Origin: Patescibacteria group bacterium
Lineage (GTDB): Bacteria > Patescibacteriota > Patescibacteriia > UBA11705 > JABHMO01
DNA: 64,000 nt
Direction: 5' to 3'
NCBI GenBank assembly: GCA_018818405.1
Contig: JAHIRY010000038.1
Location: 35,449 to 99,448 of the forward strand
The notes under the pieces are model-generated. The model ran no database searches. It was not told where the DNA came from and saw only the letters and a list, made by a program, of their open reading frames with translations. Below, piece after piece: positions 16,222 through 60,024 of the stretch. The position numbers and the translations under genes were made by a program. How positions within the stretch are numbered: the stretch's first letter is position 1; every line of letters starts with the position of its first letter.

Positions 16222-16262
16222 ATTGGATAATATACAACATTTCGTATATTTGCACAAATCGC

Positions 16263-16291
16263 TTGACATTTGGGAATATTTTGGATAAACT
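16263..16291 (+). promoter_or_regulatory. putative promoter TTGACA-17-TAAACT for rpmA
   Basis: hexamers seen 35 nt upstream of rpmA. Confidence 0.4.
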
Positions 16292-30800: not shown

Positions 30801-33753
30801 AATAATATTCTTTTGATTCTCCGCCTCGCGACAATTCATCCAGATTGGTAAATTCATCGCATCCGGCGCTGGCCGCGCTGCAAGTTTTTGCAGTATTCGG
30901 CATGAAATAAAGCGGAAACTCTCCATTTTCAAAATAAGTTTTCGACTGGTTGAATGTCGCATAGCCAGCGCATTGCTGAGGACAATAATCCGCGAATCCG
31001 GCAACGCCGTTGATAGCGCGTCCGCGATCAGTCGGCGTGAAATTCTGACAGCCGACATCTTCGGCAGAACAAAGTCCGGCAAAATCAGAACAGCCTTTGT
31101 TTTTCTCGGTTTTTACCGCATCATCGGAAACATCAATATCAGCCTCAGTCTTCGGCCTGCCATAATCCGCCTCTTCAATTGTATTGTAGCAACCCAAATA
31201 TTCAGGCGCTTTTTTCACATAAACAACATTCTGGCTGGCATATTCATTGAATTCATGCATTTCGGAAATTGCCGGCAGAGAAAGTTCCTCAACCATTACA
31301 TTGTCCACGATCGCGTCTCCGCCGGCCACAGCCAATTGAAATTGCAACTTGTCAAGTACGATTGGATTCGCTCCGGTCGATACTTTCACTTGCCAAATTT
31401 TATAAATTTTTTCCCAGCTGTCCGTTGCTGTCGCCGCTGTAATATCTTTATTGGCAACAGCTGACATGGCCAATCCATCTGCATCGGGAGCAACCAATTC
31501 GATCACTGCCGACGCATTGGCCTGTTTCTTTTTCACAAACCCGGAAACCGCAAAATATCGGGCTGTTTTCTTTGGCGCGATTTCAATATTCGGAATAATT
31601 AAATTTTCCAAAGCGGCTAATTTAACGGCCGCTCCTCCTTCATAAGACTCGGAAACCACATTTTTCCCGCCCGCCCAGCCGGTGACAATGTTCGTTGATT
31701 GCAATTCATCAATTCTCCCTGAAAAAATTTCAAAATCTCCGTTTACCACCAGATTCGTTCCCAATCCGCTCGCTGTTTTCACAAATCTCGTGCAACCCTC
31801 TTGATTCGGATTGCATTGCGCGTTTTCGATATTTTTATTCAATAAAATTTTTGAAGCATCCGCGTCCACCCAATTCCAAGAATTATCCGCCAATATTTTC
31901 TCAGTGCTGTACCACTTGCAACCCGCGTTCGTCGCGTCGCAAACCGATCGATCGACAGTGTTCATCACCAAATTAACGGATTTTCCCTTCCTCATCTGCA
32001 AAGAACGGCAACTGTCATAAACGCCCGAACATTCATCTCCGCCCAATCGGAAAACATTTTTCTCAGCCGCGCAATATCCCCAGGAAAGACACTTGCCCTT
32101 TGCATCAGTGCGCACACAGCTCGGCATATCAACGCAGACTTCAGCTCGAGTGTTCGAACCCGCGTCAATCAACAATGGTCCGTTAACCAACGCATTGCAT
32201 TGCGTTGCCGGATATTTCAAAATCCAATTCGGATCAATCAACTGCCTGAATTTATAACCCGCGTCATTTGGATTAGTTTGATTGAATTGACTGATTACAT
32301 AATTCAATGAGACAACTTCTTCCGAACCAACCTGACTGGCGGCAAGCTCCCAGCCGATTGGAATTATTCTCGCTGTTCTCAGTTTCACCAAATTGGAATA
32401 ACAAAAACCGTATTGATAGCAATCGGCATTGGAATTTCTCGCATCATACTTTCCGATCAAACGGCGCTTGCCGTCAATCAGTCCCTGATCAATGGCCTCC
32501 TGCACTGACAGCGGCTTGTCCTGAGTTGAACGGCGAACAGCATCGGCAAACGCATTATCCATGACGCAATTGTTTATCTGCCTTGTCCGGGGACAAGAGG
32601 TATATTCAGTCAATAAATCAATTTGCTTGGTGGAATAAGTGAAATTAACCTGCTTTATTTTTATTACGTCTTTTTCCACCTGCTTTTTCGTATCAAACAT
32701 ATTGTCAGCCGGCTGATAACTCTCCGAAGTTTGCACCAATCCCTTTTCAAAAAACTTCTTGCTCATGAAGTCAACAAATCCTTTTGAAATAAAAGTATTA
32801 ACAAAAGCGCCGATTACCGATTCCGGTATATCGGAAATCACATAACTGGCCGGTTCCATTTCAGTATTCTTCGCCTCGGTAATTGCTTGCAGTTCGTTTG
32901 TCATGTGTCCGCGCAAAAGGAAAGAAGGCGTTTTTATAATATCGCCACTCAGACTGGTTATCGCCTTTGCTCCTAAATTTTCCGTTCTTTGCTTTTCTTC
33001 CGCCATGCTTGTAATGCGCTGTTGTCTCTGCAATTCATCTTCCATTGTCAGATACATCCCGATGTCAGAACTTTTGCGATCAAACTTCACTTCAATGATT
33101 CTCTGCAATGCGATAAGAGTACCGGCGGCCGGATTATCAGAAATATTATCAGCTGTTCGTTTAACATCCTCGACAAATGATTCCCAATTATCTAACAAAT
33201 TACTTAAAGAACAATCCGGTTTTACCCTTGTTTTATCTTTTAGATATTGATTATCCAAACCAATAACGATTTTCAATTTTACATCAGCTCCGGGATCGCA
33301 AATATCAAATCCCAAATCATCCCAAAATACATCTCTGACATAGGTAATGAATGTCGCTGCCGTGTAATCCATTATATCCTGCTTGAATTTTTCCCACGAC
33401 TGAGTGTAAAACATCGGTCCCTCGCCCTTGTCGCCGGTAGTGACAAAATTATAATATTGAGACGCCGCTGTTTGCGCCAGAAAAACCATAGTATTGCGCA
33501 AAGTAATGGCTGCGGATAAAATCAATGCTTTCTGCAAACGATTTTCCACATTTTTTTGAGTTTTATCAACCGTTTTCTCAATGTTGCGCTTGACTTCAAA
33601 ACCCATATCCTGCGCATTTTTAGCGGGATCAATGACCGGCAATTCAGCGCGAGCCTCTCGCGGGAACAACATGCCGGCAGCAATGAAATTTGAAAACGCA
33701 AAACAAAACACCAAAATCGCGATTGATATTTTTTTGTTTTTATTTAAAGTCAT
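24832..33753 (-). CDS. giant (2973 aa) Cys-rich secreted/surface protein with CBM4/9-like beta-sandwich segments
   Basis: uninterrupted 8.9-kb ORF; N-terminal signal/TM; many Cys; NGDFE...GW CBM-like blocks. Confidence 0.85.
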   Translation of the reverse strand: MTLNKNKKISIAILVFCFAFSNFIAAGMLFPREARAELPVIDPAKNAQDMGFEVKRNIEKTVDKTQKNVENRLQKALILSAAITLRNTMVFLAQTAASQYYNFVTTGDKGEGPMFYTQSWEKFKQDIMDYTAATFITYVRDVFWDDLGFDICDPGADVKLKIVIGLDNQYLKDKTRVKPDCSLSNLLDNWESFVEDVKRTADNISDNPAAGTLIALQRIIEVKFDRKSSDIGMYLTMEDELQRQQRITSMAEEKQRTENLGAKAITSLSGDIIKTPSFLLRGHMTNELQAITEAKNTEMEPASYVISDIPESVIGAFVNTFISKGFVDFMSKKFFEKGLVQTSESYQPADNMFDTKKQVEKDVIKIKQVNFTYSTKQIDLLTEYTSCPRTRQINNCVMDNAFADAVRRSTQDKPLSVQEAIDQGLIDGKRRLIGKYDARNSNADCYQYGFCYSNLVKLRTARIIPIGWELAASQVGSEEVVSLNYVISQFNQTNPNDAGYKFRQLIDPNWILKYPATQCNALVNGPLLIDAGSNTRAEVCVDMPSCVRTDAKGKCLSWGYCAAEKNVFRLGGDECSGVYDSCRSLQMRKGKSVNLVMNTVDRSVCDATNAGCKWYSTEKILADNSWNWVDADASKILLNKNIENAQCNPNQEGCTRFVKTASGLGTNLVVNGDFEIFSGRIDELQSTNIVTGWAGGKNVVSESYEGGAAVKLAALENLIIPNIEIAPKKTARYFAVSGFVKKKQANASAVIELVAPDADGLAMSAVANKDITAATATDSWEKIYKIWQVKVSTGANPIVLDKLQFQLAVAGGDAIVDNVMVEELSLPAISEMHEFNEYASQNVVYVKKAPEYLGCYNTIEEADYGRPKTEADIDVSDDAVKTEKNKGCSDFAGLCSAEDVGCQNFTPTDRGRAINGVAGFADYCPQQCAGYATFNQSKTYFENGEFPLYFMPNTAKTCSAASAGCDEFTNLDELSRGGESKEYYSELRQCQKLPEGEAQCANYYTWVGGGVSGYQLQNYVLKKELGGNAPAMTIAEEENLTRCNAEIFAVKSNPDCREFYDDAGRVSYRLYSKTLTCSENCHPYRRTLQYADQAQCELRQGQWNTGECVFMAIPGEGKKCSAPAAGCREYKGNFSGDEEIVYENNFATGEVTSLQGSPMSLTTQADGQYLMVEEKTEIESVNGIEGLSCVESPRIYTKNALLSAVGDYVVSFWIKGDPTNFNVDVRPVENINTGDRKFLLGDGTVNADWQFHTFNLSVDETYASGVIGIRASQCERTFYIDNFKITKVNDLKYLIKNSWSTPAICDNELTHTPANEADRQIPQAQLGCREYRDSGKNTHYLKNFTNICSADKVGCETMIDTKNSSSPFEQGYKKIPLNVELCSSYMSKWEAVPTNNFFQIPGTAAVVNENLQACTFQVRAKVGGEPPALSQTYENMCGYLDGNWNDGVCYLQEIEKDSLIYLVNTKDKQCKNTEKGCTALGLPTLMVDAEGNYIPSQDKWNNVFYKLDPDTFDSENSPLCANSDLRCEEFKGVKGETYYFKDPGDKTCEYRKAQQGSESIFGWFKKKLNDNDPDVLCETKNYYEDGNSQIIRINDEDFSGWAGICKSSADLCTAFVDPTDKTLSDKGKAYYYVNNEDIDKTSCSDVSRKEGCILMNDTSMLNANGEPDLKWQGYLTYFEGNDKQSAVPPKNASTFDSYALGRVGDCTEDDYCKKVESCVNAEKDYLTCAGEARAEQINTCTDRQIACTFELIASKNDANSIVKVVRDRECAAWYDCKSSHWAWDSNKNKYIEVCDDVGVCDKLSPAEDTLKCAHFIVGEDNNNLLSLNKPLKGTDETDGYQNRNVSWSSLDYTGMAIPDMAPVNFYNSFDLRQGRGVEPDKRCGGVTSGNLCVNDNDCGQQYCFGNPNEGLCSTDADCGSYCGGEREYGRCEAADDCSGGRNCISLGNICRIEAVVSCEEVRGQVYKEKDFRLVNQLTDTSCEQDSDCTDACTVANPSGENCRCLSGICVQTSESERTFQEAAAPECRAYPKDDSPFPAGIAGTDLYVNANISWLDVDFAEINKNEDYGCYYREVQYGGGAITKYVPKTELYSPADPEQGFCQDSPDIQCQCDDFDYPQIDSSPMVKINNKTMCSSIQCSLNSSKPISKGNEPGLCMKKKGTAIDYHGWEGYCLQEDISLPKNNKQEEHPCITWYPTEALAGLQDLQNQYDSAGFWPQDYGFSDGSPYYCLKSSNWEKRQNYNQTEEGYRDCDGGALDACNGETKEVRENCLPAGLASSTAGIECDGNGSACVSGNPNVYTRWTADKLWDRLVGSSNVSAGTINANTDPFGGIGNTASCWTRDCGGEKFERPSCDKNYNIGGANSFEHDGGIFDHDGATDECSLEDEDWFKMTYQCKPINMPADQSAGWYKDAAGNTNAAIGEISKQSCDTAVGVSDENGKNKAFTNEIYKSVQIPDQPKCNPLGALALTGGIGETIYNLFLGAGCNQEENYPEGGIVYQSIDALKKYFAAAKTYYEMKIQNIEEKTCTSIHPEINGLSCTSDSNVCTTAQYPLECNILTLRHCNNQSGANSGNPCFWDTECVNTAPVVGNAGNRVYCTANLPNIERNEANCIWQKADRSILAEHWLFIDSYNFAQQEISAECYVGRTLENNSCPIEKYEHTPFGYVGTVILKEVVATNPPEMKSDPSASCSNIINIPSNADGIGYLNNPNKIWDISNEQKVGVPMIAAAIPSGRSDAKGNVLYGAIPNTMTIRGQTSGDIVSLDGQLAVTMNFYAWANDDQMPIRNVTIDWGERVQGVGVDGKYQNHKPRCQRPANEPLGICNGVSGLACSDDSACYDADDPRCEEGSDPSRCFFTGKCSDQKDDRFGDTTDACMESYFSYNNTYTCNLSDPVLKDCGTAGADPNYCRTTYQGNPACQYIPRVIVTDNWGWCNGTCGGADGCYNEGDFPLCDPLDEHGEPGTSFDGKIIVLP

Positions 33754-46397: not shown

Positions 46398-47486
46398 TTA
46401 TTTCGTCAAAAATTGAAAACTGTTTACAATCATGCCAAACAATGCCGGAAAATCAGCTGTTTCCTTCAGACCGATATTATAATTGATAATGTAAACTGTG
46501 TCCTCTTTTGCCAGATAAACGGTAAAAGCATCCGGACTTTCGATCACTGTCAATTTTTCAGTTGTGGTATAGGATTTCAAATCGGATTTGTTTACATCCG
46601 GAGCTTTTTCCAGATACCAATCTTCCAGACTTTGCTCCGGCGCTTTTTCCGACATCAGAACATTTACAAATTCATTGCGCGCTGAAGTGATCATAACATC
46701 TCGACCGGCTTCATCCACAGCATTCAAAAGCCATGTGGACGGATACAAGAGACTATAACCCCATTGTTCATTTGTATATAATTTCACAAAATCTTTTTCC
46801 GACAACATGACAGCTGTCGCGTCAATCGGGCTGTAAAGATTTTTCAATTCACCTCCATCCGGATAACCATCGCCGTCAGTGTCTGACAATCCCGCGTTAG
46901 TTCCGATTAAATTTTCCTCAACATCAGTCAATCCGTCTTTGTCAGTATCAAGACTGCCAACCATGGAAAGAGCTGTTTGGCGAATTTTAGATGGATCAAA
47001 TGCTTCTATTTCCGGAATTTCCTCTTCCGCAACTTCAGTTTCAACTACCGGAATCTCCGTAATTGCGACTTCCTCTTCCGGAACAACAGGAACTTCAACT
47101 GCCGGCGCGGCCGGCGCTTCGCCCAACTGCGGAGTCACTGCCGGAGCCGGTGTTTGCATGCTTTGATACAAGAGCCAGGCAGAACCGGCGACAAGCACAA
47201 CCAAAATTATTATCACAATGATTGTCAATCCTTTTTTACCGCCCTTCTTTTCTCCGGCCGGAGCGGCAACATTTCCCGAAACGCCGGCAGATGTTTTTAC
47301 TCCTTGATAATATTCCATTGGCATGGTGTGAATAACTTCCGCGCCAACAGGTTCAGCGGTTTTAACAGGAGCGCTCGCTTCCATCGGTTGAGCCGGTGCA
47401 ACGGGCGGCGGAGGCGCGGCAACTTGCGGTGCCGGAACTGCGGCCGGCGTCGGTTGATTTTGTTTTGGTGTCAAATCATCGAACAT
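46398..47486 (-). CDS. membrane protein: P/A-rich N-terminus, single TM, thrombospondin-type-3 repeats (ORF to 47516; start taken at MFDD)
   Basis: DTDKDGLTDVEE, DTDGDGYPDGGE; paralog of 47694, which also starts MFDD. Confidence 0.65.
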   Translation of the reverse strand: MFDDLTPKQNQPTPAAVPAPQVAAPPPPVAPAQPMEASAPVKTAEPVGAEVIHTMPMEYYQGVKTSAGVSGNVAAPAGEKKGGKKGLTIIVIIILVVLVAGSAWLLYQSMQTPAPAVTPQLGEAPAAPAVEVPVVPEEEVAITEIPVVETEVAEEEIPEIEAFDPSKIRQTALSMVGSLDTDKDGLTDVEENLIGTNAGLSDTDGDGYPDGGELKNLYSPIDATAVMLSEKDFVKLYTNEQWGYSLLYPSTWLLNAVDEAGRDVMITSARNEFVNVLMSEKAPEQSLEDWYLEKAPDVNKSDLKSYTTTEKLTVIESPDAFTVYLAKEDTVYIINYNIGLKETADFPALFGMIVNSFQFLTK

Positions 47487-47526
47487 ACAATATTTAAAAT
47501 AAAAATTAATTCGCAATGAATTTTTA

Positions 47527-47669
47527 TCGTTTCATGGCGGTGTAGAGACGCATTGCAATGCGTCGCTACATCGCCATGAAGCGATGACGGCGGCGTGTGT
47601 TTTGTCGCGACAATATACGGCGCGGCGGTAAGTAGCGGCGGGTCTAGACCCGCCGCTACTTACCGCCGC
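47527..47669. repeat. GC-rich nested palindromes: a 9-bp outer stem enclosing an 18-bp perfect palindrome, plus a separate 48-bp perfect palindrome
   Basis: TTCATGGCG...GACGCATTGCAATGCGTC...CGCCATGAA; GCGGCGGTAAGTAGCGGCGGGTCT|AGACCCGCCGCTACTTACCGCCGC. Confidence 0.85.
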
Positions 47670-47693
47670 TACACATTTTCAAAAAATAAACAA

Positions 47694-48464
47694 TTACAAT
47701 TTCCCCGGACCATTCGGATTATAACCGCCGTCCACCTCGTCGCCATCGCTGTAAGTATCTTTGTCAGTATCAGGATCCAGCGGATTTGTTTTGTGAACTT
47801 TTACTTCATCATAATCAGACAAACCGTCTCCGTCAGTATCAACAACTTTTTCATCTGTTTTCAATTCCATTTCTTCAGCATCAGTCAGTCCGTCTCCGTC
47901 AGTATCAAGACTATCATTGGTCGGCGCAACATTCGCCTCCACCGGTTTTGGAATTTCAACCGCAGGCGTCGGAGTCGGCTTTGCGGGCGCCGGTTCTATT
48001 GTTTCTTTTATAACTTGCACATTTTGATCGACAATGACAAAAGGATTTTTTTCTCCTTCCAAGCGCGCCGATATAAATCCATACAAAACATAACCCGAAG
48101 CGCCGAGCAATATTAAAAGCAATACAAGCACGGCAATCCATTTCACTTTTCCGGGACTTGACGGCGCGGGCATTGCCGGCTGAGTCGGCATATTTGCCGC
48201 TGGCGGAGAAACCGGAGCCGACGGTTTAATGTTTTCATAAATATCAACAACTTTTTGTTCGCCTGTCGGTGCCGGGTTCAATGGTTGTTGCATCGGAGCC
48301 GAAACATTCGGCGCGGGCGCAACCGGCGGAGGCGTTGGAACCGCGGGTTGCGGTACGGAAGCTGGAACCATTGGTTGAGGAGCCGGAGCCGGCGGAGTTG
48401 TTGATTGCGGAGCCGGAACAGCTGGCTGAGTCGGCGCACTTGATTGCGATTGATCATCAAACAT
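47694..48464 (-). CDS. membrane protein with P-rich N-terminus, TM helix and thrombospondin-type-3 repeats
   Basis: DTDGDGLTDAEE, DTDGDGLSDYDE, DPDTDKDTYSDGDE. Confidence 0.65.
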   Translation of the reverse strand: MFDDQSQSSAPTQPAVPAPQSTTPPAPAPQPMVPASVPQPAVPTPPPVAPAPNVSAPMQQPLNPAPTGEQKVVDIYENIKPSAPVSPPAANMPTQPAMPAPSSPGKVKWIAVLVLLLILLGASGYVLYGFISARLEGEKNPFVIVDQNVQVIKETIEPAPAKPTPTPAVEIPKPVEANVAPTNDSLDTDGDGLTDAEEMELKTDEKVVDTDGDGLSDYDEVKVHKTNPLDPDTDKDTYSDGDEVDGGYNPNGPGKL

Positions 48465-48488: not shown

Positions 48489-51400
48489 TTATTTACACAC
48501 AGGGAAAGCAAGCCCCGGCACAACACTGTAATTGTAAGTATAACCGTCGGAGTTTGTTTCCAATCGATATTTCAATTCATAACAATTTTGCAAGCCTGAA
48601 GCGGAAGCTTTGTATGAATAAACCGGATGATCGGTTTCATGCCCGGCGTAAATATTGGCAAAAAGCTGATTACTGCTATTATAACATGTTTCGCCGTTAT
48701 AGCCTTGGGCGCAGTTGACGCAGGCAAATCCCGGAACAGCGCATTGATAACTCAAATCCGGACATTTCAAAATCGGAGTTTCGTCCTCGACCGAGCAAAT
48801 TTCACCGGTATAATCGCCGCTCTCCGCCGGTGTTTCCCATTTGAAATGATTCTCCGGATCTCTCGGCAATTCCGCGCCGAGTTCCCGACCCAATTCTCCC
48901 TGCCATGACGGCCAAACGCTGAATGTTTGTCCGCGGACATAAGATCCCGATTCGAGCATTGGGACTTTATTTCCATGAGCATTCTTGTAATTTTCCAGAT
49001 AAATTCTCATCAAAACCATGTCGCTGATTCTCTTTGTATCGCGAATGATTTGCGATTTGTCCGGATCAGAGCTCGCGTCGCGGTTCAGATTGAACTTGAT
49101 GTATTTCACCATTTGGCTGTAAATGTTCATTGTTTCCGCGCCGGAATTTCGGGAATAACCCAGCAAATAAATATTATTGTAAACCGTCTTGTTAGCGGAA
49201 ATATTGGCCGCTGAAATATAAATGCTCGAACCGTCCTGCGCCGCAGCATAACAATTTCCCTGAAGATCGCAATCCACTTCCACTTTTGAAGTGCTCGCAG
49301 CCGGATTCGGCGCATAATTCTGATACCACACATCAGGCGGCAATGCTTCCGGATTTTCATAAATTCTGAGAGAAATAACATCAGCTGACGGAATTCCGTC
49401 CGGAGTGAAGAAATATTGCGCCAAGAGTTTCGGCTCCTCAGCCGGATCATCGGCGGAAACGCATTTTTTGTCATCCGGAAAATCAATCAATCCGTTTCGA
49501 TCATTGTCAATTCCGTCTCTGCATTGATTCTCGGATTGAAGACGCACTTGCTCTGCCGCCGCTCCCACATCCGAGCCGAATTGGCTGAACAGATTTACAT
49601 AATTAAATGAACCGCCAGAACAATGATCATCTCCGGTACAAACGCCGATCGCGTTTTGCTGATCATCGGAATTTTTCAAATTATGTTCAAAATCAAGATG
49701 AACAATCAAATTCGGATCATTCTGATCAGTTAAAACATATTGATTTGCAATTATCTCTCCGGTTGTTCTTGCCGTTTTCCAAATTCTAAAATCTTCCAAA
49801 TACCCGTTCAAGCCTCTATCCGGAGTTCCAAAAGATGAACCCACATAAATATCTTTATTCTGAGAAACGCCAGCTACAGGAAAGCTGGAAGCAGCAAAAT
49901 TGCTTCTTTCTCCATCAATAAAAATCTGATACTGCAATCCTCCCGGATGTTCTCCGTCATAAACGACCGAAATTGCATGATACCCTGCAGAAACCGATTG
50001 CGTTGTCTGCAATTTGATGGAATTTAACTGACCATATCTCAGATTCCAATAAACTTTGTTTACCAATCGACCATTTTCCTGAATCGGAAACAAACCAATC
50101 AAAATCTGCGGACATCCTCCGGGAACGGCAGCTTCACAATTGAGATTTTTCGTAAAAATCGGTTGAAACACTTGCCCCGACGGCTCCGGCACATATATCA
50201 GTGATTCAATAGTCCACGGTTTGCTGAAATCTGAAAAGTCCAATTTATTTTGCAAAGCGTCGGTATATGGAATTCGCAATTTATCGTTTTGATCAAATTT
50301 AATGGCAAATCTGTTCGGCGGGATTGCCACTGCCGGCGATTCTTTCAATTTCGGCAGATCATCCGTCGTGTCATTTCCTTCGCCGAAATCGCGGCAGTAG
50401 AAGAGACCGACATTATATTCTTTTTCATTCAGATGAACCGGTACTTTTGTTCCCGTTCCGGTTTCATATTCCAACAAATCCCATTTATCCTCTTCAAAAT
50501 GTTCCGGCGACCATGGATTCTCGCAAATCATCATTTCTATTGTTGCCGCGCCTTCGACAAATGCTCCGGTCGAATCAGCGGAATTAACATCAGCGCAAAC
50601 GCAATTTTCCGCGCCTTCCGCACAGGCGACCGCCGGATCCTGCGTCGCGTCGCGGCATACGCGGCGAATCTCGCCCAGAAAACCGCCTTGGTCAAGGCCC
50701 AATTTGTCAACCGTTATCACCGCTTTCGCGTGAATCTGAGTTTCTCCGTTTTTCGCCGTTGTTGTCACTTTAACCTCGTTTTTATTCTTTTTATCAGATC
50801 CGTTCTGCACAACATTGCAAACTTCCTCATCCTGTCCTTCCACCGCTTCCATCGAACAAATTTTCCCGACAATGGAAGAATCATCGGTTCTCCATTCCCA
50901 GCGCCAATCATAAACTCCGGGAATTGCCTGAATCAAATTTCCTTTGCTCTTGGCGATTGCCCTGTAATCTTCCACATGATCCTGATCGAGAATCAATCGG
51001 TAATCAGGATCCAGACTCACCTGATCGAGCTTGCAAACTTCATTGCCGGTTGAAAATTGAGTGGTGAATTGTCCCAAAACATCGCCGCAAATATTGGTCA
51101 TGTCATCCATTACAACCAAGATTTGTTTTCCGGCGGGCAGAGCTTGTTTCGGAGTAATCATAATGGCGGTTCTTCTGTCAGCCGGATTTTGCTCGCCCGT
51201 GCTCTCAACCGAAACATTATCTATCTCAATACGGCACAAATAAGCTTCCTGCGCAAATGTCACTTTTGCCAATAAATTCTTCAGCGCCAATTTCAATCTC
51301 TGGAAAAATCCCATGGCAGTCTCCGCCGGACATGCCTCTGCGCTCAAATAAAATAATTTTATATTTGTTGAAATATTTTGCTCTCCGATTTTCTTGTTGA

Positions 51401-54400
51401 ACGGAATATAAATCAATGCATTCCGGCAAACACCCGCCGAATTTCTAGCCGGAACTATGTTATTCACATCCATGCGAATATCCGGAGACACGCATTGTCT
51501 GTCGCGAAAAGTCAATTCCGTTGTTCCTGTTTTTGAAATCGGATTATCGCCCGTTTCAGTGCCGGTGGCGCTGATATCGGTGCTGTCCTGCGCATAATGC
51601 TTTTCCGGATCATACAAATTCAGAATATCAATATTGCCGACAACCGTTGCCGACTGATACGGACTCTGACCGATGGACTGACCGCCCGGCTCGCATTGAT
51701 CATCCTCTCCGCTTCCAACAATTCCATCTCCGCAGGCAGAGCCGGCTTCAACCGATGAACCTTGATTCAGACATTTTCCATTGCAATATGAAGGAAATCG
51801 ACAGACGCATCCCTGATCAACGCCATAGACGCAACCGGAACCATCGGCTTTTTTGCATTCTGACTCGCATTCTTCATTTCCATCAATCGTTCCATTTCCG
51901 CAACAATTCTCCGTCACCGCGCCGATACAGCTCGTAAATCCTCTCCACAAACATCTTTCATTGCAATCCGGATTGTCAGCCAATGAACAGACACAGCCCT
52001 GAACTCCGTAAGCGCAAGCTGAATTATTGGCGTTTTTACAAATGGCTTCGCATTCTTCTCCGCCTTCCAGCTCTCCGTTGCCGCAGAGCGCTGACGCCGC
52101 CGGCTCTCCTTTTTTATATTTTGAACCTTCATTTAAACATTTGTTCGAACAACCGTCTCCATTGGAAGTATTGCCGTCATCGCAATCTTCGCCTTCTTCC
52201 ACTATTCCATTGCCGCAGACAAATCCGGCAGCGGTTCCCGCTTTCAAACAACCGGCAGTGCAAGCAGGATCCTTTGCCACGCAAACGCAACCTGCATCTT
52301 CATCTTCCGGGTCGCAGGCTTCGCCATCTTTCAAGAATTGACAAGCGAAATCGCATTCTTCCGTATATGCAATATCTTCGATCGAATAAGTTCCGTCTTC
52401 CCTGCCGTTGCCGCAACATTTTTCATTTTCCGCTCCGGTGCAAAGATTCGGCACCGCCTCGCGCAAACAGTTGGCGGAACAACCGTCTCCATTGGCAATG
52501 TTATCAATTACATCGCATTCTTCACCGCTTTCCCTGATCCCGTTTCCGCAAACCGATGCCAAAGAACCGCTGCCTCTGGACAAACATTTGTCAGTGCAAA
52601 ATTCCGGCAACCCCAAATGATAAAGCGTATCGGAAATTGTCGCCACATTCGGCTTGCCGCTCATCCATGCCCAAGTATAATCATATTGATTCAAAATCTG
52701 TCCCTCCGGATCGCAAGCATCCGGCGCGCTCCTCGGCAGAGCTGAATATGAGATTCTCTGTTCCTTCGTCTCGCTGAGATAACTCTGAGGCATGACTGAA
52801 ACCGAATTGATCCGGCATTTCTCTTCTGTATTTTTTGTTTTGAAAACCCAGCTGAACGAGTCCGTTGTTCCTTGTTCCGCTAGCGCGGTGCTGTAATTCA
52901 AACCTGTCAGATCGACTCCGCTCGCACTCTGAGTATTTCCGGAGATTACCACTCGATAAAATTTGTTCGGCAGTAATTCGTTGCTCGGATTTACAGTCAA
53001 TCGGTTGGTCAGTTTTCCCTCTGCGTCCAATTCGAATTGATAATTCGGAATACTTCCCGCCAAATCAACTTCATCAAAAGTGACGCAATCGGCGCCCGCT
53101 CTGCAGGCAAACAATTTAACATTATCCGTATTCAAGGTTTCAGACCCGTCGACAGCAACATTAATCAAACTTGAAGATTTCATCTGAATATTGAAATCAG
53201 CGCCAAAACCGGCATTAATGCACGCTTCATCGCAAGCCGGAAAATATGAAACCACTTTCGGATCAGCGAATTTTATTTCCAGTTGCGCGTCCTTTGAAAC
53301 ATTGCCGGCAGTACGGAAAATCATTGAATCGGTCGCGATGGTTGCGTATGCTCGCACTCCGACAAGTTCATCAACGGTTGTTTCCAAATTTACCGGATTC
53401 GCTTTTGCCTCGGCTGACAATCCGAAAATTCCAATATCTTTTCGCAATCCATCTTCATCGAATGCGTTTCTCTGGAATGAAACTCGCTCGCTGTTCTCCC
53501 GCGGATCATTCGCCGTCCAGCGCCAATTTTCATCCATTAGCGAAATATCCTGGCACTGATATTGTCCGGAAACCATGAAAGATTCCGTGTCATCCAGTGA
53601 ATCAATCAAACCTTTGATCGGCTTCATCAACAATGTATCGGCAGAACACAATTCCGGCAAAGTTCTGAATTGCCATGAATAATCTCTGGGCATGAATTCT
53701 CCTTTTTCTGTCGCAATACCGTCCGCGCCTCCTTTTATTTCAACTTTATACAATGTATTTTTGAACAAATTGGCGTAAAATCTTGGACCCTCCGCTATCG
53801 GAGCCGCTCCGCCCTTAAACAAAGACTTATTCAAAGTTCTGGCCAAATGAAATTCAGTCAACTGTTTTCCGGAAACTTCACACTCGCAATTCGGCGTTCC
53901 GGCGGCGCAAGAACTTCCGTTTCTGAGACAAACGGCAGATTCATTGGTCGTGCCGATATCATTCGGATCAATCGCCCCGACCGGCTGAGTAATGCAATTC
54001 TCTTCGCACTTGTCCAGATCGCATTGGCCGAGATCAACGGTGCAAGTGCAGGCAGCGGAAGTTTCAACGCATTCTTCACTTTTATTTTCCTCGCATCTCA
54101 GCGTACGCAGAGGATACTCGCATTTTTTTATCGTAATATTATTATTCAATGTCGCTGAATTGATAATCATGTTAAAAGTTCCGGAAATCATTCCATTCGG
54201 ACAAGCGTCAATAGAACCTCTGAACGGCGAAGGCGATTGCGGCAAATATCCGCGAGTGCAGGATCGCTCCAATATTTTCGGGACTTTCGGCAAGGAGCCG
54301 GTGCTCACAATCCAGGCAAACTCAGAATCAGCGCCCTCTGCCGGAGCAACGCATCCGTCTGCAAGGTTTGCGCAAATTCCGGTTGCGCAACATATTCTTC

Positions 54401-56957
54401 CTTCACCGCAACTTTCTCCGCTGCAACTGCCGACAGTAAAATGAACTTCATTGCTTTTCTGCGCATTATCATTATTCTCAACATAAACTTTTCCGGAAAC
54501 CGCTTCAGCCGGAATACGCGCTTTCTTAATGGCAGTGTTAGCCCAAGCCGCAGTTTCAGTCACCTCAATTCCCGGATCATCAGCCACTCCTGTTTTGGCA
54601 AATTTAAGTGTGTAATTCGCTTTCGCTCCGAAATTTTGTCCGCTCAAATCCACCAAAATTCCTCGCGGACCATTGTCCGGAGAAATAGAACAAATCGCCG
54701 GACCGGCAGACTCTTCATTTACCGCCAAATTCTTCGGTTCACTGCGAACAGCATCGGAAGTCACCAGCACAACGCCGTAAGTTCCGGCCGGCAGAGTATC
54801 GGAAATTTTTACTTTTACCTCAGAATCATTCCAGCTGTTATTCTCACAACCAAGGCCGGCATTCGTTTTTTCTCCAGCCGCATCCAACAATTCCACCCAG
54901 CCGACTTTTGTTCCGAAATTTTCTCCGCTCAGAGTAATAATTTGTCCTTGTGGCGCCGGACTCGGCGAAATTTCTTTTATTTCCGGCAAATTCTCCAACA
55001 CGGAAATTCTGAAACGAACCGGATTGCTCACAATAAAAGTGCAGACGCAACCGTCTGTTCCTTTTTCACATTCTTTATTATCAACATTAATGCAACGCTC
55101 GCCCTGGCTGACGGAAACATTTACCAACCCTGATTTTAAATTCGGAATTTGTATTTTTGTAATTCTATCTCTAGTCCATTGCGCGCCAGCTGACAACTGC
55201 GTGGGATTTTCTCCGAAATAAACGCGATATTCCGCCGCGCCCGGATCATTGGACGAACCAAAATTGGTTCCGTTCGCCACGACGCTCTGTCTCAGATCGC
55301 CGGCCAGACAATTGGAGCACTCCGCTCCTTCGCAAACGCAATCTTCCCGCGCAACCGAGCACAATCCCGGATATGTCAGCGTTTCATTTATTACAAAATC
55401 TTTTTTCCACCCGCGATCATTTATTGTGTCATCATATTTATTGTCCTTGTTTACAATTTTAATCGGACCGTCGGTCGCGCCTTCCGGCACTTTTGCGATC
55501 ACTTGCCGGTCAGACCAAGCGAAATTATCAGCGCAGCCCATTTCCGCTTCAATATAAACCGGATTATTGTCACTATCAAGTCCGCCGGTAAAATAAACTT
55601 TGCTTGTTCCGGCGACAAAATTTTTAAATCCCGAACCGTAGACGGAAACCAGATTTCCCGTTGCGCTCTCATCGGGCGTCACATTTGTAATTACCGGCAA
55701 AGCAATACATTTATTCGGTTCATCAACGCCTTGCTCGGCGCAATAATATCCGCTCGCGCAATCAACATCATCGCGGCAAGCGCCGTCGCAAGCTCCGCAC
55801 TCGGCTCGTCCGCAAACAGCGACTCCGTCTTCAAAACATGATTCAGGCAAAACTTTCACTCTTATTTGCTTTGTCGCGGAATGATCATCCACATCATCAG
55901 CCTTTGCTTCCAGAGTATGCATTCCTATTGCCAGATCCGCCGTGTCCCATTCAAAGGAAGATTCTCTCGGCGTGGCTCCGTCTTTGCCTTCTTCTGCGAC
56001 CAGCTCGCCGTCAGCGGAAAATGAAATCGCGCTAATGCCCGAATCATCGACAGCCGAAATATTCATATCAACAAAATCATTGACAGAAACCTTGGCTCCG
56101 TCCAGCGGCGAAGTGAAACTGACTTGCGGCGCGGTGACATCAACATTTTCACCGGTTGTAAAATCCGATCGGCACACACTGCCGGGAGCGCAAGACAATC
56201 CCTTTCCGCCGGTCGATTTTATTTCCGTCGGAACAAGAGAGACCGAATATTCGGTATTCGCGCCAAAACATTTTAAATTATCATTCGGCGCCGGACATTT
56301 TTCAGATGGAGTAAATACAACTTTACTGCCAATGACCACAAAATCGCCGGCAACCGCATTACCCTCTTTGTCAATTATCTTTACTGTTTGATCATTAATT
56401 GTTCGAGAATTTACGGTCGAAGAAAAATTGATGCGGACTTTTACATTTCGCACTTTCAATTCAGTACTCGGCGAAATGGATCGTCCGACAAAAGATCGGA
56501 CATTAGCGACTTGCAAACCGCCGATCGGCGCCGCGCCTTGAATTTCAACTCCCGGTCCGGCCTGCAAACCGGTTGCTTCTGACAATCGGCTGATAACAAA
56601 AGATGTAATCGCGTAAGCTGAAAAAACAATTGCCAAACCGATAAAAGAATTGATTAAAATTTTCTTTGCTTTCGCCACTTTCGCCTCTTCTCCTCCGCTC
56701 GTCATGTAAACAAAGCCGCCGTACAAAACCAAAACAATCGCGATCACGCCGACAAAACCGAGAATAATTCTGATAATATTGCCGATCGTCACGCGCAGAT
56801 CAACTCCGGCTGAAAGTCCGGTCGCCTCGCCCACTGTTTCCACTCCCAGATCCGGCGCCTGAGCAAACACTCCGCTTGCAAATGAAAATCCGCTGACAAT
56901 TATGAAGAATATTATCAGCCATTTAATCAATTTTTTTATTTTTCCTTCGTTAAACAT
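48489..56957 (-). CDS. giant (2822 aa) surface protein: pilin-like two-helix N-terminal anchor, Myxococcus-type Cys-rich repeats, LamG/ConA-like domain
   Basis: N-terminus YMTSGGEEAKVAKAKK between two TM helices; repeats CGNGxxExGEECDxxxxxxGDGCSxxC; GYLEDFRIWKTARTTGEI LamG_3-like. Confidence 0.85.
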   Translation of the reverse strand: MFNEGKIKKLIKWLIIFFIIVSGFSFASGVFAQAPDLGVETVGEATGLSAGVDLRVTIGNIIRIILGFVGVIAIVLVLYGGFVYMTSGGEEAKVAKAKKILINSFIGLAIVFSAYAITSFVISRLSEATGLQAGPGVEIQGAAPIGGLQVANVRSFVGRSISPSTELKVRNVKVRINFSSTVNSRTINDQTVKIIDKEGNAVAGDFVVIGSKVVFTPSEKCPAPNDNLKCFGANTEYSVSLVPTEIKSTGGKGLSCAPGSVCRSDFTTGENVDVTAPQVSFTSPLDGAKVSVNDFVDMNISAVDDSGISAISFSADGELVAEEGKDGATPRESSFEWDTADLAIGMHTLEAKADDVDDHSATKQIRVKVLPESCFEDGVAVCGRAECGACDGACRDDVDCASGYYCAEQGVDEPNKCIALPVITNVTPDESATGNLVSVYGSGFKNFVAGTSKVYFTGGLDSDNNPVYIEAEMGCADNFAWSDRQVIAKVPEGATDGPIKIVNKDNKYDDTINDRGWKKDFVINETLTYPGLCSVAREDCVCEGAECSNCLAGDLRQSVVANGTNFGSSNDPGAAEYRVYFGENPTQLSAGAQWTRDRITKIQIPNLKSGLVNVSVSQGERCINVDNKECEKGTDGCVCTFIVSNPVRFRISVLENLPEIKEISPSPAPQGQIITLSGENFGTKVGWVELLDAAGEKTNAGLGCENNSWNDSEVKVKISDTLPAGTYGVVLVTSDAVRSEPKNLAVNEESAGPAICSISPDNGPRGILVDLSGQNFGAKANYTLKFAKTGVADDPGIEVTETAAWANTAIKKARIPAEAVSGKVYVENNDNAQKSNEVHFTVGSCSGESCGEGRICCATGICANLADGCVAPAEGADSEFAWIVSTGSLPKVPKILERSCTRGYLPQSPSPFRGSIDACPNGMISGTFNMIINSATLNNNITIKKCEYPLRTLRCEENKSEECVETSAACTCTVDLGQCDLDKCEENCITQPVGAIDPNDIGTTNESAVCLRNGSSCAAGTPNCECEVSGKQLTEFHLARTLNKSLFKGGAAPIAEGPRFYANLFKNTLYKVEIKGGADGIATEKGEFMPRDYSWQFRTLPELCSADTLLMKPIKGLIDSLDDTESFMVSGQYQCQDISLMDENWRWTANDPRENSERVSFQRNAFDEDGLRKDIGIFGLSAEAKANPVNLETTVDELVGVRAYATIATDSMIFRTAGNVSKDAQLEIKFADPKVVSYFPACDEACINAGFGADFNIQMKSSSLINVAVDGSETLNTDNVKLFACRAGADCVTFDEVDLAGSIPNYQFELDAEGKLTNRLTVNPSNELLPNKFYRVVISGNTQSASGVDLTGLNYSTALAEQGTTDSFSWVFKTKNTEEKCRINSVSVMPQSYLSETKEQRISYSALPRSAPDACDPEGQILNQYDYTWAWMSGKPNVATISDTLYHLGLPEFCTDKCLSRGSGSLASVCGNGIRESGEECDVIDNIANGDGCSANCLREAVPNLCTGAENEKCCGNGREDGTYSIEDIAYTEECDFACQFLKDGEACDPEDEDAGCVCVAKDPACTAGCLKAGTAAGFVCGNGIVEEGEDCDDGNTSNGDGCSNKCLNEGSKYKKGEPAASALCGNGELEGGEECEAICKNANNSACAYGVQGCVCSLADNPDCNERCLWRGFTSCIGAVTENCCGNGTIDGNEECESECKKADGSGCVYGVDQGCVCRFPSYCNGKCLNQGSSVEAGSACGDGIVGSGEDDQCEPGGQSIGQSPYQSATVVGNIDILNLYDPEKHYAQDSTDISATGTETGDNPISKTGTTELTFRDRQCVSPDIRMDVNNIVPARNSAGVCRNALIYIPFNKKIGEQNISTNIKLFYLSAEACPAETAMGFFQRLKLALKNLLAKVTFAQEAYLCRIEIDNVSVESTGEQNPADRRTAIMITPKQALPAGKQILVVMDDMTNICGDVLGQFTTQFSTGNEVCKLDQVSLDPDYRLILDQDHVEDYRAIAKSKGNLIQAIPGVYDWRWEWRTDDSSIVGKICSMEAVEGQDEEVCNVVQNGSDKKNKNEVKVTTTAKNGETQIHAKAVITVDKLGLDQGGFLGEIRRVCRDATQDPAVACAEGAENCVCADVNSADSTGAFVEGAATIEMMICENPWSPEHFEEDKWDLLEYETGTGTKVPVHLNEKEYNVGLFYCRDFGEGNDTTDDLPKLKESPAVAIPPNRFAIKFDQNDKLRIPYTDALQNKLDFSDFSKPWTIESLIYVPEPSGQVFQPIFTKNLNCEAAVPGGCPQILIGLFPIQENGRLVNKVYWNLRYGQLNSIKLQTTQSVSAGYHAISVVYDGEHPGGLQYQIFIDGERSNFAASSFPVAGVSQNKDIYVGSSFGTPDRGLNGYLEDFRIWKTARTTGEIIANQYVLTDQNDPNLIVHLDFEHNLKNSDDQQNAIGVCTGDDHCSGGSFNYVNLFSQFGSDVGAAAEQVRLQSENQCRDGIDNDRNGLIDFPDDKKCVSADDPAEEPKLLAQYFFTPDGIPSADVISLRIYENPEALPPDVWYQNYAPNPAASTSKVEVDCDLQGNCYAAAQDGSSIYISAANISANKTVYNNIYLLGYSRNSGAETMNIYSQMVKYIKFNLNRDASSDPDKSQIIRDTKRISDMVLMRIYLENYKNAHGNKVPMLESGSYVRGQTFSVWPSWQGELGRELGAELPRDPENHFKWETPAESGDYTGEICSVEDETPILKCPDLSYQCAVPGFACVNCAQGYNGETCYNSSNQLFANIYAGHETDHPVYSYKASASGLQNCYELKYRLETNSDGYTYNYSVVPGLAFPVCK

Positions 56958-56984
56958 TTTATTTTTATTTTAAATTTTTTCCTT

Positions 56985-58916
56985 TTACTCCGCGCTCGGA
57001 AGAGGACAAGAATCCGCCGACACCTTTTGCAATGGGAAATTCGCTTCGTTCAAATTCGGACAACAAGAAGTTCCCGATCCCGCATCCGTGCAGTCAGCAA
57101 ACGATTTTGTCGGACTGAAACAATTTTGTCTGGAATCCCGCACCGTTGATTTGATAATCGGCGTATATTTCGGCGAAGCATTCGCAGTCTCCGGACTGAA
57201 CGCGCCATGATTAATTTCAATCTTAGCATCATCAACTTCACCGTCAGCCGTTTCTCCCAGATTCGCGTCAAACCAAGAAGTAAAATCTTCTCCAATCAAA
57301 GCAACCTCCCGATCAACCGATTCCGCGTCCAATCCTTCATTGAAAGTCGCAGACAAAATAACATTTACCGGCAATGAATCGCTGGCATTGTTCGGTTCAA
57401 GCAATGTAATCCAAGGCGGAGTCAAATCAAGCGAATCGCCGGTTTTGAATTTCCATTGAAAATCATCGGTGAGCGGACCGTCGCATTTATCATTAGCATT
57501 TCCATCCAGAGAATTTCCCGCCATATCCATAATTCCCGTGCCCGGAGTGCCCAGACAGCCTTCGATCAAATCAGCTGCCAATGCTTTGCCGGTAATTTCA
57601 ACATTGCTCGGCAAGCAAAATACCGGCTCGCCGCAAGAATTTTCTTGCACTCCCTCGCACGGAGTATTGCTGATAAACTGAATTGTTTTATAACTATTGA
57701 TTCCGACTTTCCAGTCGCCGGGAATATGATTTGTTTCACAATCATCTTTTGCATGATCCGGACCGAAGAGCTGCGCTTCATTGTCATTGTCAGCCGCATT
57801 GCACACCTGCTCCTGGCTCAACGGAGGAATCACCGGTTCATTGAAATTTATTGAAACTATTTGATTCAAATACACATAACCTTGTTTGTCCAACGCTCTA
57901 TCGCTCACATCAGGATATTCATGATCAGCCGGCACAACCGAACGAATCTGCGGCGGAATATTGTCAATGGTCGTGTTTGTCAGAAATCTCCATTTGTAAT
58001 CAGGCGTTGCCAGATTAAAAATGCTTTGGCCGTCCGATCCTTCTCTCAGAATTCCGGAGGTTAACTGAACAATATAAGAAACTTCATTTTCCGAACTGCC
58101 CATATGTTCATTGGCGCTTTGGCCGTACGGATTGAAAATAATTGTCCTGTGATCAGCGGTAATCATCGCATAACCGGGAACTTGTAATTCCGCGTTGCCC
58201 GGAACTTCCTTGCAATCCATCATTTTTTCTTCCGCGCACCCGAAAACCTTGAATGATTCGGTCAGCGAACCGCATATTCTTCCATCCGCCATTGCCGGAC
58301 ATGGATAAGCCGCGTTCGCAGATCCGATGACAGACGCCGGATCAACCGGCAAACGAAATGTCACAAGAATCATTGAATTGCGCGGCACTCCGGTCTGCTC
58401 GGGCAATGGATAATGGCTCTGAATCACCGAGCCGAAAGCTCCGCCTGATAAACTTACTCCCGGTCCGCCTCGTCCGGCGATTGTAACTCCGCCTCCGCCA
58501 CCGCCCGCGCCGACCAATCTATTGACAACAAAAGAAACGATCGCGTAAGCGGAAAAAATTATTACCAATCCTATGGCTCCGTTTATCATCCATTTTTTTG
58601 CTTTTTCCACCTTGGCCGGCTCTCCTCCGCTGGTCATGTAAAGCGCGCCCGCATACATGACAATGATTATCGCGATCGCGCCGACAAAACCGAGCGCGAT
58701 TTTGATAATATTTCCAATAATTACTCTGGGATCCTGCGCCGTGAGTATCGTTTGCTCGCCCACCGCAGTCAGTCCGGCTGTAATCTCAGACTCCGCCGCT
58801 TGCGCGTGAACCGAAACCGGCGAAAATAAAAAAATCGCCAAAACAAATATAAAACAACCGGCAGTTATCTTGATTATAAAATCCAACTGATTTGATTTTA
58901 TTTTGTTTGGCATCAA
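56985..58916 (-). CDS. 643-aa membrane/surface protein sharing the same N-terminal pilin-like anchor, then a Gly-rich linker
   Basis: DPRVIIGNIIKIALGFVGAIAIIIVMYAGALYMTSGGEPAKVEKAKKWMINGAIGLVIIFSAYAIVSFV aligns with the N-terminus of the 2822-aa protein. Confidence 0.75.
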   Translation of the reverse strand: MMPNKIKSNQLDFIIKITAGCFIFVLAIFLFSPVSVHAQAAESEITAGLTAVGEQTILTAQDPRVIIGNIIKIALGFVGAIAIIIVMYAGALYMTSGGEPAKVEKAKKWMINGAIGLVIIFSAYAIVSFVVNRLVGAGGGGGGVTIAGRGGPGVSLSGGAFGSVIQSHYPLPEQTGVPRNSMILVTFRLPVDPASVIGSANAAYPCPAMADGRICGSLTESFKVFGCAEEKMMDCKEVPGNAELQVPGYAMITADHRTIIFNPYGQSANEHMGSSENEVSYIVQLTSGILREGSDGQSIFNLATPDYKWRFLTNTTIDNIPPQIRSVVPADHEYPDVSDRALDKQGYVYLNQIVSINFNEPVIPPLSQEQVCNAADNDNEAQLFGPDHAKDDCETNHIPGDWKVGINSYKTIQFISNTPCEGVQENSCGEPVFCLPSNVEITGKALAADLIEGCLGTPGTGIMDMAGNSLDGNANDKCDGPLTDDFQWKFKTGDSLDLTPPWITLLEPNNASDSLPVNVILSATFNEGLDAESVDREVALIGEDFTSWFDANLGETADGEVDDAKIEINHGAFSPETANASPKYTPIIKSTVRDSRQNCFSPTKSFADCTDAGSGTSCCPNLNEANFPLQKVSADSCPLPSAE

Positions 58917-59621: not shown

Positions 59622-59739
59622 AAAACATTTCATCCGATCGCCGGCCGTACGGAACAAAAATCTTTGTTCCCCGTTTTCATTAAAAAAATTTTAAATTATT
59701 CATAAATAAAATATCAACGCAACATCCCGCGCAAAATAA

Positions 59740-59768
59740 AAAAATTCCGCAAACTGCGGAATTTTTTG
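59740..59768 (-). terminator. intrinsic terminator after rpsU
   Basis: AATTCCGCA-AAC-TGCGGAATT with flanking A/T runs. Confidence 0.7.
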
Positions 59769-59781
59769 AATGAATTCGAAT

Positions 59782-60024
59782 TTAATATCGTCGTCTTCGC
59801 TGCGGTTCTTCCGGCAATCGGCCGATCTTTTTCATGTATTCATGCGTTTCCCGTTTTTCTTTTTTCACGAGAGCGCTCTTCCGGCGCATGTTTCGATTGA
59901 CATCGCCCTTGAAAAAACGAATCTTCTTCGCCTGCAACAGCAAACCGCTCTGCATCAGCCGCTTGTTAAAGCGCCGAATAAAAGCTTCAAAAGTTTCGCC
60001 TTTTTTTCTCTTTGAATAAACCAT
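59782..60024 (-). CDS. rpsU: 30S ribosomal protein S21 (ORF to 60066; the SD GAAGGAG indicates the MVYSK start)
   Basis: IRRFNKRLMQSGLL...AKKIRFF, C-terminal RRRRY. Confidence 0.9.
   Translation of the reverse strand: MVYSKRKKGETFEAFIRRFNKRLMQSGLLLQAKKIRFFKGDVNRNMRRKSALVKKEKRETHEYMKKIGRLPEEPQRRRRY

Follow-up and report, generated by a model that had tools for sequence, protein, structure and literature searches.

A large part of bacterial diversity belongs to the Patescibacteria, or Candidate Phyla Radiation (CPR), whose members seem to live attached to other microorganisms. Here, we describe two adjacent genes in 64,000 nucleotides (nt) of DNA from a Patescibacteria group bacterium (assembly GCA_018818405.1, contig JAHIRY010000038.1, positions 35,449 to 99,448), referred to as the window; all positions below are positions in the window. 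The genes encode a mid-size protein, MID, and a giant protein, GIANT. Both lie on the minus strand and are 27 nt apart, so that the coordinates of their open reading frames (ORFs) bear out the adjacency and common orientation described in an earlier note on this DNA. A distinctive characteristic of the two proteins is that each begins with a pilin-like module and continues into a much larger domain that probably lies outside the cell. Their features are summarized in Table 1. The window is otherwise ordinary chromosome, with genes for MraY, MurD, FtsW, NrdD, RF-2, HtrA and similar proteins.

Table 1. Features of the MID-GIANT locus and its downstream genes (aa, amino acid residues; AF2, AlphaFold2 model; pLDDT, predicted local distance difference test score)
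Feature	Position in window	Strand	Basis or remark
MID, 642-aa putative modular VirB2-like pilin	56985..58913	(-)	PF18895 and Big_5 matches; NCBI MBU1132415.1, named 'pilin'
MID signal peptide, aa 1-39	58797..58913	(-)	hydrophobic segment 9-40; putative cleavage after AQA, from AxA motif
MID pilin hairpin, aa 62-134 (helix 1, SGGE turn in K-rich loop, helix 2)	58512..58730	(-)	AF2
MID Gly-rich flexible linker, aa 135-153	58455..58511	(-)	sequence; pLDDT <50 at 136-153
MID ectodomain, aa 154-642, three Ig-like (Big_5-type) beta domains, 16 Cys	56988..58454	(-)	Big_5; AF2
GIANT, 2822-aa putative modular VirB2-like pilin	48489..56957	(-)	NCBI MBU1132414.1, 'hypothetical protein'
GIANT signal peptide, aa 1-34	56856..56957	(-)	hydrophobic segment 9-34; putative cleavage after AQA
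GIANT pilin hairpin, aa about 54-126	56580..56798	(-)	Pfam stretch 57-121; MID alignment; hydrophobic segments 54-89, 99-123
GIANT N-terminal stalk, aa about 131-950: Big_5, Big_7, TIG/IPT	54108..56567	(-)	Pfam; conserved in orthologous giants
GIANT Cys-rich 'myxo' repeats, aa about 1470-1700	51858..52550	(-)	TIGR02232; DUF4215; motif scan
GIANT LamG/ConA-like lectin-type domain, aa 2301-2402	49752..50057	(-)	PF13385, 32.8 bits against a cut-off of 27.6
GIANT conserved C-terminal domain, aa 2480-2822 (343 residues)	48492..49520	(-)	found only in giant orthologues
256-aa single-pass membrane protein, Pro-rich N-terminus, C-terminal TSP3 repeats	47694..48464	(-)	starts 24 nt after GIANT
372-aa single-pass membrane protein, TSP3-type repeat (below Pfam cut-off), PsbP-like C-terminal part	46398..47516	(-)	conserved downstream

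The size of 643 aa given for MID in the earlier note corresponds to an existing ORF that opens at the TTG at 58916, but the ATG at 58913 stands behind a GAGGA ribosome-binding site and is the most likely start, which gives a product of 642 aa. The same 642-aa product is found in the public versions of the gene (the ENA contig, NCBI MBU1132415.1 and JGI/IMG, all identical). The public gene calls start at other codons than the listed 643-aa and 2822-aa ORFs. Fusions of this kind could be assembly chimeras or come from gene calling that reads through from a small pilin into a surface-protein gene. Nothing speaks for such an artefact beyond the general frequency of these errors in metagenome-assembled genomes (MAGs), and it is effectively refuted already: the frames are uninterrupted over 642 and 2822 codons, the MID gene was read on the ENA contig and its product agrees among the three public sources, and 36 independent genomes at species level show the same architecture, as do many metagenome clusters.

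BLASTP comparison of MID with GIANT gives one strong alignment only, at the N-termini, in which 77 of 149 residues are identical (52%, E 2e-31); identity within the hairpin core is 70%. The similarity of the two N-terminal modules of about 70 aa is therefore far beyond chance, as claimed earlier, but to call them 'almost identical' overstates a core identity of 70%. Their loop reads YMTSGGE(E/P)AKV(A/E)KAKK in both proteins, exactly as first described. By hydropathy, each protein has three hydrophobic segments, the signal peptide, helix 1 and helix 2, all of them within the first 135 aa. The AF2 model of MID, built from a 70-sequence alignment (pLDDT 85.9, predicted TM score 0.77), shows the module as a helical hairpin with helices at residues 62-94 and 99-134 (pLDDT about 84-90). 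The loop has a net charge of +2 and the mature N-terminal extension a net charge of -3. Because these charges follow the positive-inside rule, the loop is predicted to be cytoplasmic and both ends to be outside, and everything after helix 2 looks extracellular.

Both modules score above the gathering threshold (26.6 bits) of the Pfam family PF18895, T4SS_pilin, in whose name T4SS denotes a type IV secretion system: GIANT with 35.8 bits (aa 57-121) and MID with 44.2 bits (aa 65-130). The likeness to TrbC/VirB2-type pilins that was proposed from the letters alone thus holds, and it is this family, not an unrelated signal-anchor family, that the module matches. The match to the classical TrbC/VirB2 family is weaker. 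PF04956 gives 22.6 bits for MID (E 1.2e-4), which is under its gathering threshold of 27.9, and no match to GIANT in the Pfam search, and both proteins fall below the threshold of the NCBIfam model 'pilin-like conjugal transfer protein'. Neither module has a sequence match among the structurally solved conjugative pilins. Marks of other surface-protein classes were absent: the first 80 aa of MID and of GIANT contain no class III signal peptide or G|FTLIE motif, Pfam N_methyl gives no match, and neither MID nor GIANT has an LPxTG (LP.[TSA]G) motif or a C-terminal hydrophobic segment.

The free pilins of the PF18895 family in Patescibacteria have in common with MID and GIANT a signal peptide, a short acidic extension, two hydrophobic helices and an MT(S/A)GG(D/E)xxKVxKAKK loop. 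They are about 120-170 aa long and end just after helix 2, whereas the 642-aa MID and the 2822-aa GIANT lie far outside this size range, and proteins of their type carry 500 to >3,300 further residues that are predicted to be extracellular. Aligned with stand-alone pilins of 124-145 aa (P0001-P0004), the module covers the whole of the small pilin, and the fusion starts where the free pilins stop. The hairpins retain all family-invariant residues as well as the loop motif. A hidden Markov model (HMM) built from free small pilins only, taken from half of the array loci described below, gives mean scores of 115.8 bits for MID modules, 118.5 for GIANT modules and 113.2 for held-out free pilins. 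Because the fused modules score as the held-out free pilins do, they appear to be undegraded members of the pilin family, and by these sequence criteria both N-terminal modules are full VirB2-like (PF18895) pilin units. The family is very large, with 78,349 cluster representatives at E<=1e-3 in an exhaustive profile search; a word-index homologue search with the 138-aa module gave 4 matches. A neighbour-joining tree of about 90 columns resolves no clean clade of fused modules, but the nearest neighbours of fused modules are other fused modules in 64 of 68 cases.

The part of MID that follows the hairpin consists of a linker and a globular region, and here the earlier description was accurate on both counts. 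The G-rich run is disordered in the model (aa 136-153), and the Cys-containing globular part comprises three beta-rich Ig-like domains of Big_5 type. The pLDDT exceeds 90 over most of the length of this ectodomain, and one domain matches Pfam Big_5. Foldseek searches with the MID model found tandem Ig-like domains of L,D-transpeptidases as the best PDB matches; the whole model returned Ig-like domain matches only and is uninformative on pilin membership.

A flexible, disordered linker directly after helix 2 could also be a place of cleavage. If the pilin unit were a pro-region for export and tethering, the ectodomain might be cut off, for example at this linker, and released. Such shedding would echo the C-terminal trimming of TrbC-type pilins; the maturation of RP4 TrbC includes C-terminal processing. 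However, GIANT has no comparable Gly linker, the sequences mark no conserved cleavage site, and no gene for a protease is tied specifically to the pair, the LepB gene upstream being a housekeeping gene of the conserved cluster. We consider shedding very improbable.

The ectodomain of GIANT is more complex. Its Pfam content comprises Big_5, Big_7, at least two TIG/IPT domains, DUF4215 and Laminin_G_3, and weak Big_5 signals occur in three segments that are otherwise without annotation. The stalk also has a weak PDB match to the IPT-like domain of cyclodextrin glycosyltransferase (CGTase). The Myxococcus-type Cys-rich repeats and the LamG/ConA-like domain noted earlier are both recovered by family models. 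TIGR02232 scores 50.1 bits over two stretches (E 1.7e-13, cut-off 20.8 bits), a motif scan finds four copies of CGNGxxExGEEC(D/E) at aa 1470-1698, and the LamG match lies above its Pfam cut-off (Table 1). All of the 122 Cys residues of GIANT are in the ectodomain, none of them before residue 221. The Pfam search found no SLH or other wall-binding family in MID or GIANT. From the Ig/TIG, Cys-rich and LamG content, together with the predicted outside topology, we infer that the ectodomains are adhesive or lectin-like.

The C-terminal domain of GIANT gives no Pfam match even at E<=1. With jackhmmer, homologues were confined to the giants of related loci (all 20 matched loci), and a word search gave 4 homologues. 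The AF2 model of this domain is unreliable (pLDDT 41.5), and nothing is drawn from it. The domain contains a predicted long helix, IIRDTKRISDMVLMRIYLENYKNAHGNKVP, which resembles at motif level only a segment of a CPR type IV pilin (L027:2271-2750, minus), ARDAKRxxD...LxxYxxDNxGSYP, located after the N-terminal helix of that pilin.

A scan for the module with a 3-sequence alignment as query, in one genome per GTDB species, found 79 related loci. Those named by taxon are nearly all from Patescibacteria MAGs (Buchanan-, Magasanik-, Falkow- and Uhrbacteria and unnamed 'Parcubacteria'), and all four pair-carrying genomes matched in Table S1 of PMC12102498 belong to the GTDB class ABY1. Many of the loci (L002, L003, L012, L017 and others) are titled 'uncultured Gammaproteobacteria bacterium', and one array locus (L041) 'Candidatus Nanoarchaeia archaeon'. 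The Gammaproteobacteria titles look wrong because the gene content and synteny match Patescibacteria.

In 36 of the 79 loci the arrangement is that of the window, a mid-size protein followed by a giant, both with the N-terminal pilin module. The mid-size proteins have 641-1109 aa and the giants 1,724 to >3,460 aa, the latter often being cut by the 10-kb flank. The gene order is fixed: LepB, HisRS, an 80-aa S21-like ORF, YqeY, MID, GIANT, two membrane proteins with thrombospondin type 3 (TSP3) repeats, YbeY, in some cases DgkA, FtsA and FtsZ. Without their first 140 residues, the ectodomains still match their counterparts across loci and are thus orthologous. The arrangement of MID and GIANT is vertically conserved across many related (ABY1-type) species genomes, and the two are ancient paralogues with orthologous ectodomains.

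Another 33 of the 79 loci are arrays of 3-13 pilin-module genes, mostly small free pilins, and both types of locus can be present in one genome (L010 with L052; L012 with L022). Some proteins of the array loci are 200-450 aa long and carry the hairpin at the C-terminus. On the flanks of the array L052 lie genes for type IV pilin-like (N_methyl) proteins, a solute-binding protein and glycosyltransferases. Two C-terminal-hairpin proteins (L052:5130-6488 and L052:7883-8887) are encoded on either side of the solute-binding protein gene (SBP_bac_1/8); similarly sized ORFs recur at this position in other arrays, and L017, L029, L034, L051 and L053-L055 hold similar ORFs. The top of the profile search is dominated by poly-pilins. 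In P0005 (555 aa) and P0007 (820 aa), a single signal peptide precedes a tandem series of 6 or 8 VirB2-like hairpins with no internal signal peptides, and P0008 (1775 aa) gave 17 matched stretches.

The fixed place of the pair beside ybeY, dgkA, ftsA and ftsZ, as a single conserved locus, could suggest a role in the envelope itself. In such a role, MID and GIANT would be part of an S-layer-like scaffold, held in place by hairpins that form oligomers in the membrane, and would not be host-specific adhesins. The two membrane proteins conserved directly downstream carry TSP3 repeats, which are of a calcium-binding type, and Big_5, the SbsA-type Ig domain of S-layer proteins, is present in the ectodomains. 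A scaffold is nevertheless improbable. Neither protein has a wall-binding domain of the kind searched for in Pfam, and the structural match of the MID model to SbsB is not significant. GIANT also varies widely in length and modules. In a comparison with 33 related large ORFs, GIANT is best covered at about aa 1-950, 1200-1750 and 2500-2710, only about 2-3 of these ORFs cover the LamG region, and the giant is split into two ORFs in two species (L013, L038). Such variability is more typical of adhesins.

Among MID orthologues, the hairpin is the best-conserved segment, with a mean identity to the window protein of 57%, the ectodomain having 41%; the corresponding values in the distant half of the alignment are 52% and 33%. 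The hairpins of MID and GIANT from the same genome are on average 65% identical, whereas orthologous hairpins from different genomes are 51-52% identical, and the same-genome pair is the more alike in 88% of comparisons. Lineage-specific substitutions common to both modules of one genome are readily visible. Recent gene conversion was considered as the cause and rejected because synonymous codon identity is just mildly raised within genomes: at identical residues, identical codons are used in 51% of cases within genomes and in 41% between genomes. A shared constraint under which the two hairpins co-vary, or an old conversion, fits the similarity better.

These observations bear on a simpler explanation, in which the pilin-derived hairpin has been co-opted as a static membrane anchor. 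MID and GIANT would then stay in the cytoplasmic membrane and project through the wall as adhesins, independently of any T4SS. We regard this as a substantial possibility. The genes of the pair lie in a core housekeeping cluster, far from both pilin arrays and T4SS genes, and one pair-carrying draft genome (L027) is listed as VirB4-negative (PMC12102498). The hairpin is reused in the C-terminal-hairpin and poly-hairpin proteins, and an Ig-like ectodomain of about 2,700 aa could plausibly span the distance from the membrane to the surface. On the other hand, a mere anchor should conserve hydrophobicity and not sequence, and for this reason the higher conservation of the hairpin relative to the ectodomain speaks against it. 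The retention of all family-invariant residues and of the loop motif, scores like those of bona fide free pilins, and the within-genome co-variation of the hairpins of two paralogues are also not in favour of an anchor. Even if the hairpin only anchors the proteins, it would define a specific way of tethering giant surface proteins to the membrane, observed here in ABY1-type lineages, and the conserved hairpin together with the fixed synteny provides a handle for finding such proteins in metagenomes.

Our preferred reading, to which we give a probability of roughly 0.45, is that MID and GIANT are modular VirB2-type pilins whose hairpins co-assemble and thereby place adhesive modules on a T4SS-associated fibre. 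The proposed mechanism is as follows: both proteins would be exported by the Sec pathway and cut by signal peptidase I after AQA, as suggested by the sequence. The helices would then insert as a hairpin with the K-rich loop in the cytoplasm and both ends facing outward, in keeping with the charges and with the known topology of VirB2/TraA. Given this N-out/C-out topology, the ectodomains would be displayed at the surface, outside the single membrane and beyond the wall. MID would contribute its Gly linker and three Ig-like domains, and GIANT about 2,700 aa made up of an Ig/TIG stalk, disulfide-rich repeats, the LamG lectin-like domain and the conserved C-terminal head. Because the hairpins keep every conserved feature of free pilins, they may co-assemble with each other and with the free VirB2-like pilins of the genome. 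The adhesive modules would thus sit on whatever fibre the Patescibacteria T4SS builds, most plausibly at its tip, since the ectodomains are bulky. Their function may be attachment to a host or partner cell.

A more specific form of the proposal is that MID and GIANT are the T4SS adhesins of Patescibacteria, forming a VirB4-loaded priming or tip complex of a conjugative-type pilus, with the co-variation of the hairpins reflecting direct packing. We consider this form unlikely, though far from negligible. If true, the proteins would be the first modular VirB2-type pilins, and giant lectin/Ig adhesins built covalently into a fibre would set the host specificity of episymbionts.

Several observations weigh against a pilus function of the pair. 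The 64-kb window contains no VirB4, VirB6 or VirD4, no further pilin modules and no free pilin genes, and the pair sits in a housekeeping and cell-division neighbourhood, as it does in the related genomes; almost none of the 36 pair loci has a small pilin nearby, and none has T4SS machinery beside the pair. The free-pilin arrays themselves are not clearly linked to secretion machinery, VirB4 being absent within 10 kb of the array L052 and large Walker-A ORFs being few in other array loci. Resemblance between fused modules and free pilins within one genome is only weakly raised. The same hairpin occurs elsewhere at the C-terminus of proteins or as 6-17 tandem copies per polypeptide, a pattern that agrees as well with a general membrane module as with a pilus subunit. 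In addition, a 2025 review calls a T4SS-built pilus in Patescibacteria an 'intriguing possibility', and in the literature on Patescibacteria T4SS we found no demonstration of filament formation by PF18895 members.

VirB4 and VirB2-like pilins are found across Patescibacteria, with arrays of 2-11 pilin genes, and T4SS loci of ABY1 often include comF, recG and radA (Quinonero-Coronel 2025, PMC12102498). Table S1 of that study lists three pair-carrying genomes (L005, L013 and L025) as VirB4-positive and one, the L027 genome mentioned above, as VirB4-negative. A series of pilins in the T4SS cluster is essential in Ca. Southlakia epibionticum (Wang 2023, PMC10633639), so that in the one genetically tractable species a T4SS with an array of VirB2-like pilins is needed for epibiotic growth. 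PrgB-type adhesins were reported as not detected in Patescibacteria (PMC12102498). The pair is a concrete candidate for the contact-making component and could represent the missing attachment proteins of host-dependent Patescibacteria.

The organization of MID and GIANT can be compared with several known systems. In contrast to the free PF18895 pilins, MID and GIANT are encoded as one conserved pair among housekeeping genes and not in arrays or next to virB4. Classical TrbC/VirB2/TraA pilins (F, RP4, Ti) have the same predicted layout, a Sec signal peptide and a two-helix hairpin with a basic loop; they differ in family, as described above, and the host of MID and GIANT is a monoderm. Head-to-tail cyclisation, as in VirB2/TrbC, would in MID and GIANT need the removal of the C-terminal fusion.

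The closest parallel in design is found among type IV pilins. In Streptococcus sanguinis, the modular pilins PilB (with a vWA domain) and PilC (with Ig-like and ConA-like lectin domains) have been modelled as an adhesive tip complex (PMC9934059, PMC8179133). The design logic is the same, namely two pilins of a monoderm with adhesive modules grafted at their C-termini, and the combination of a complete pilin moiety with C-terminal functional modules is present in MID and GIANT in a functional-design sense only. The likeness is one of analogy and not of homology: PilB and PilC are made with a class III signal peptide, have one long alpha1 helix and are assembled by type IV pilus machinery, whereas MID and GIANT have a type I signal peptide and a VirB2-type hairpin, and their ectodomains are larger, up to about 5 times. 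With the preferred reading, the 'modular pilin' principle would apply to conjugation-type pilins as well as to type IV pili.

The role proposed here, that of an adhesin making contact with the target cell for a T4SS, is filled in other systems by PrgB (pCF10) and VirB5. PrgB is anchored through LPxTG and sortase and VirB5 is a separate soluble subunit, neither being a pilin fusion; the absence of LPxTG from MID and GIANT sets them apart from PrgB. Giant surface proteins are also known from CPR bacteria. Those of Vampirococcus lugosii (PMC8080830) are very large, membrane-associated and rich in adhesion domains and are thought to serve host recognition, but the text on giant proteins in that paper mentions no pilin-type anchor. 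Papers on giant proteins of CPR or Omnitrophota likewise describe none.

The architecture was called undescribed in the earlier note. In the sense that a literature search found no paper describing a fusion of a pilin with an ectodomain this is correct, and such fusions go unmentioned in PMC12102498 and PMC10633639. It is, however, widespread, occurring in 36 of 79 loci and in metagenome clusters, and members already carry automatic NCBI names such as 'pilin', 'TrbC/VirB2 family protein' and 'Ig-like domain-containing protein'.

The genes around the pair deserve a brief description. Homologues of the 256-aa TSP3 protein occupy the same position in L015, L021, L028, L032 and L046. Both TSP3 neighbours (46398-48464) have long Pro-rich N-terminal regions, and they may have a role in the MID/GIANT system. 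On the other side (59739-60024, minus strand), the 80-aa ORF, which is present in nearly all pair loci, has a weak match to ribosomal protein S21 (E 0.0016). A strong terminator-like hairpin with a 13-bp stem (59767-59739) comes after it, and a promoter-like site lies upstream of yqeY. Because of these two signals, yqeY, MID and GIANT may be one transcription unit. A scan of the window for tRNA genes and Rfam families, and of the region for tandem DNA repeats, gave nothing relevant.

Elsewhere in the window, a second giant protein of 2973 aa (24832-33753, minus strand) is very Cys-rich and has a signal peptide, with no pilin module and no Pfam family above threshold. Peptidase_C39_2-like proteins are encoded at 15331-16269 and 16690-18720, both on the minus strand. 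The larger of the two (676 aa) has a MopE-type putative metal-binding motif, and a DNDxNG motif like that of this protein is also present in GIANT at about aa 2480.

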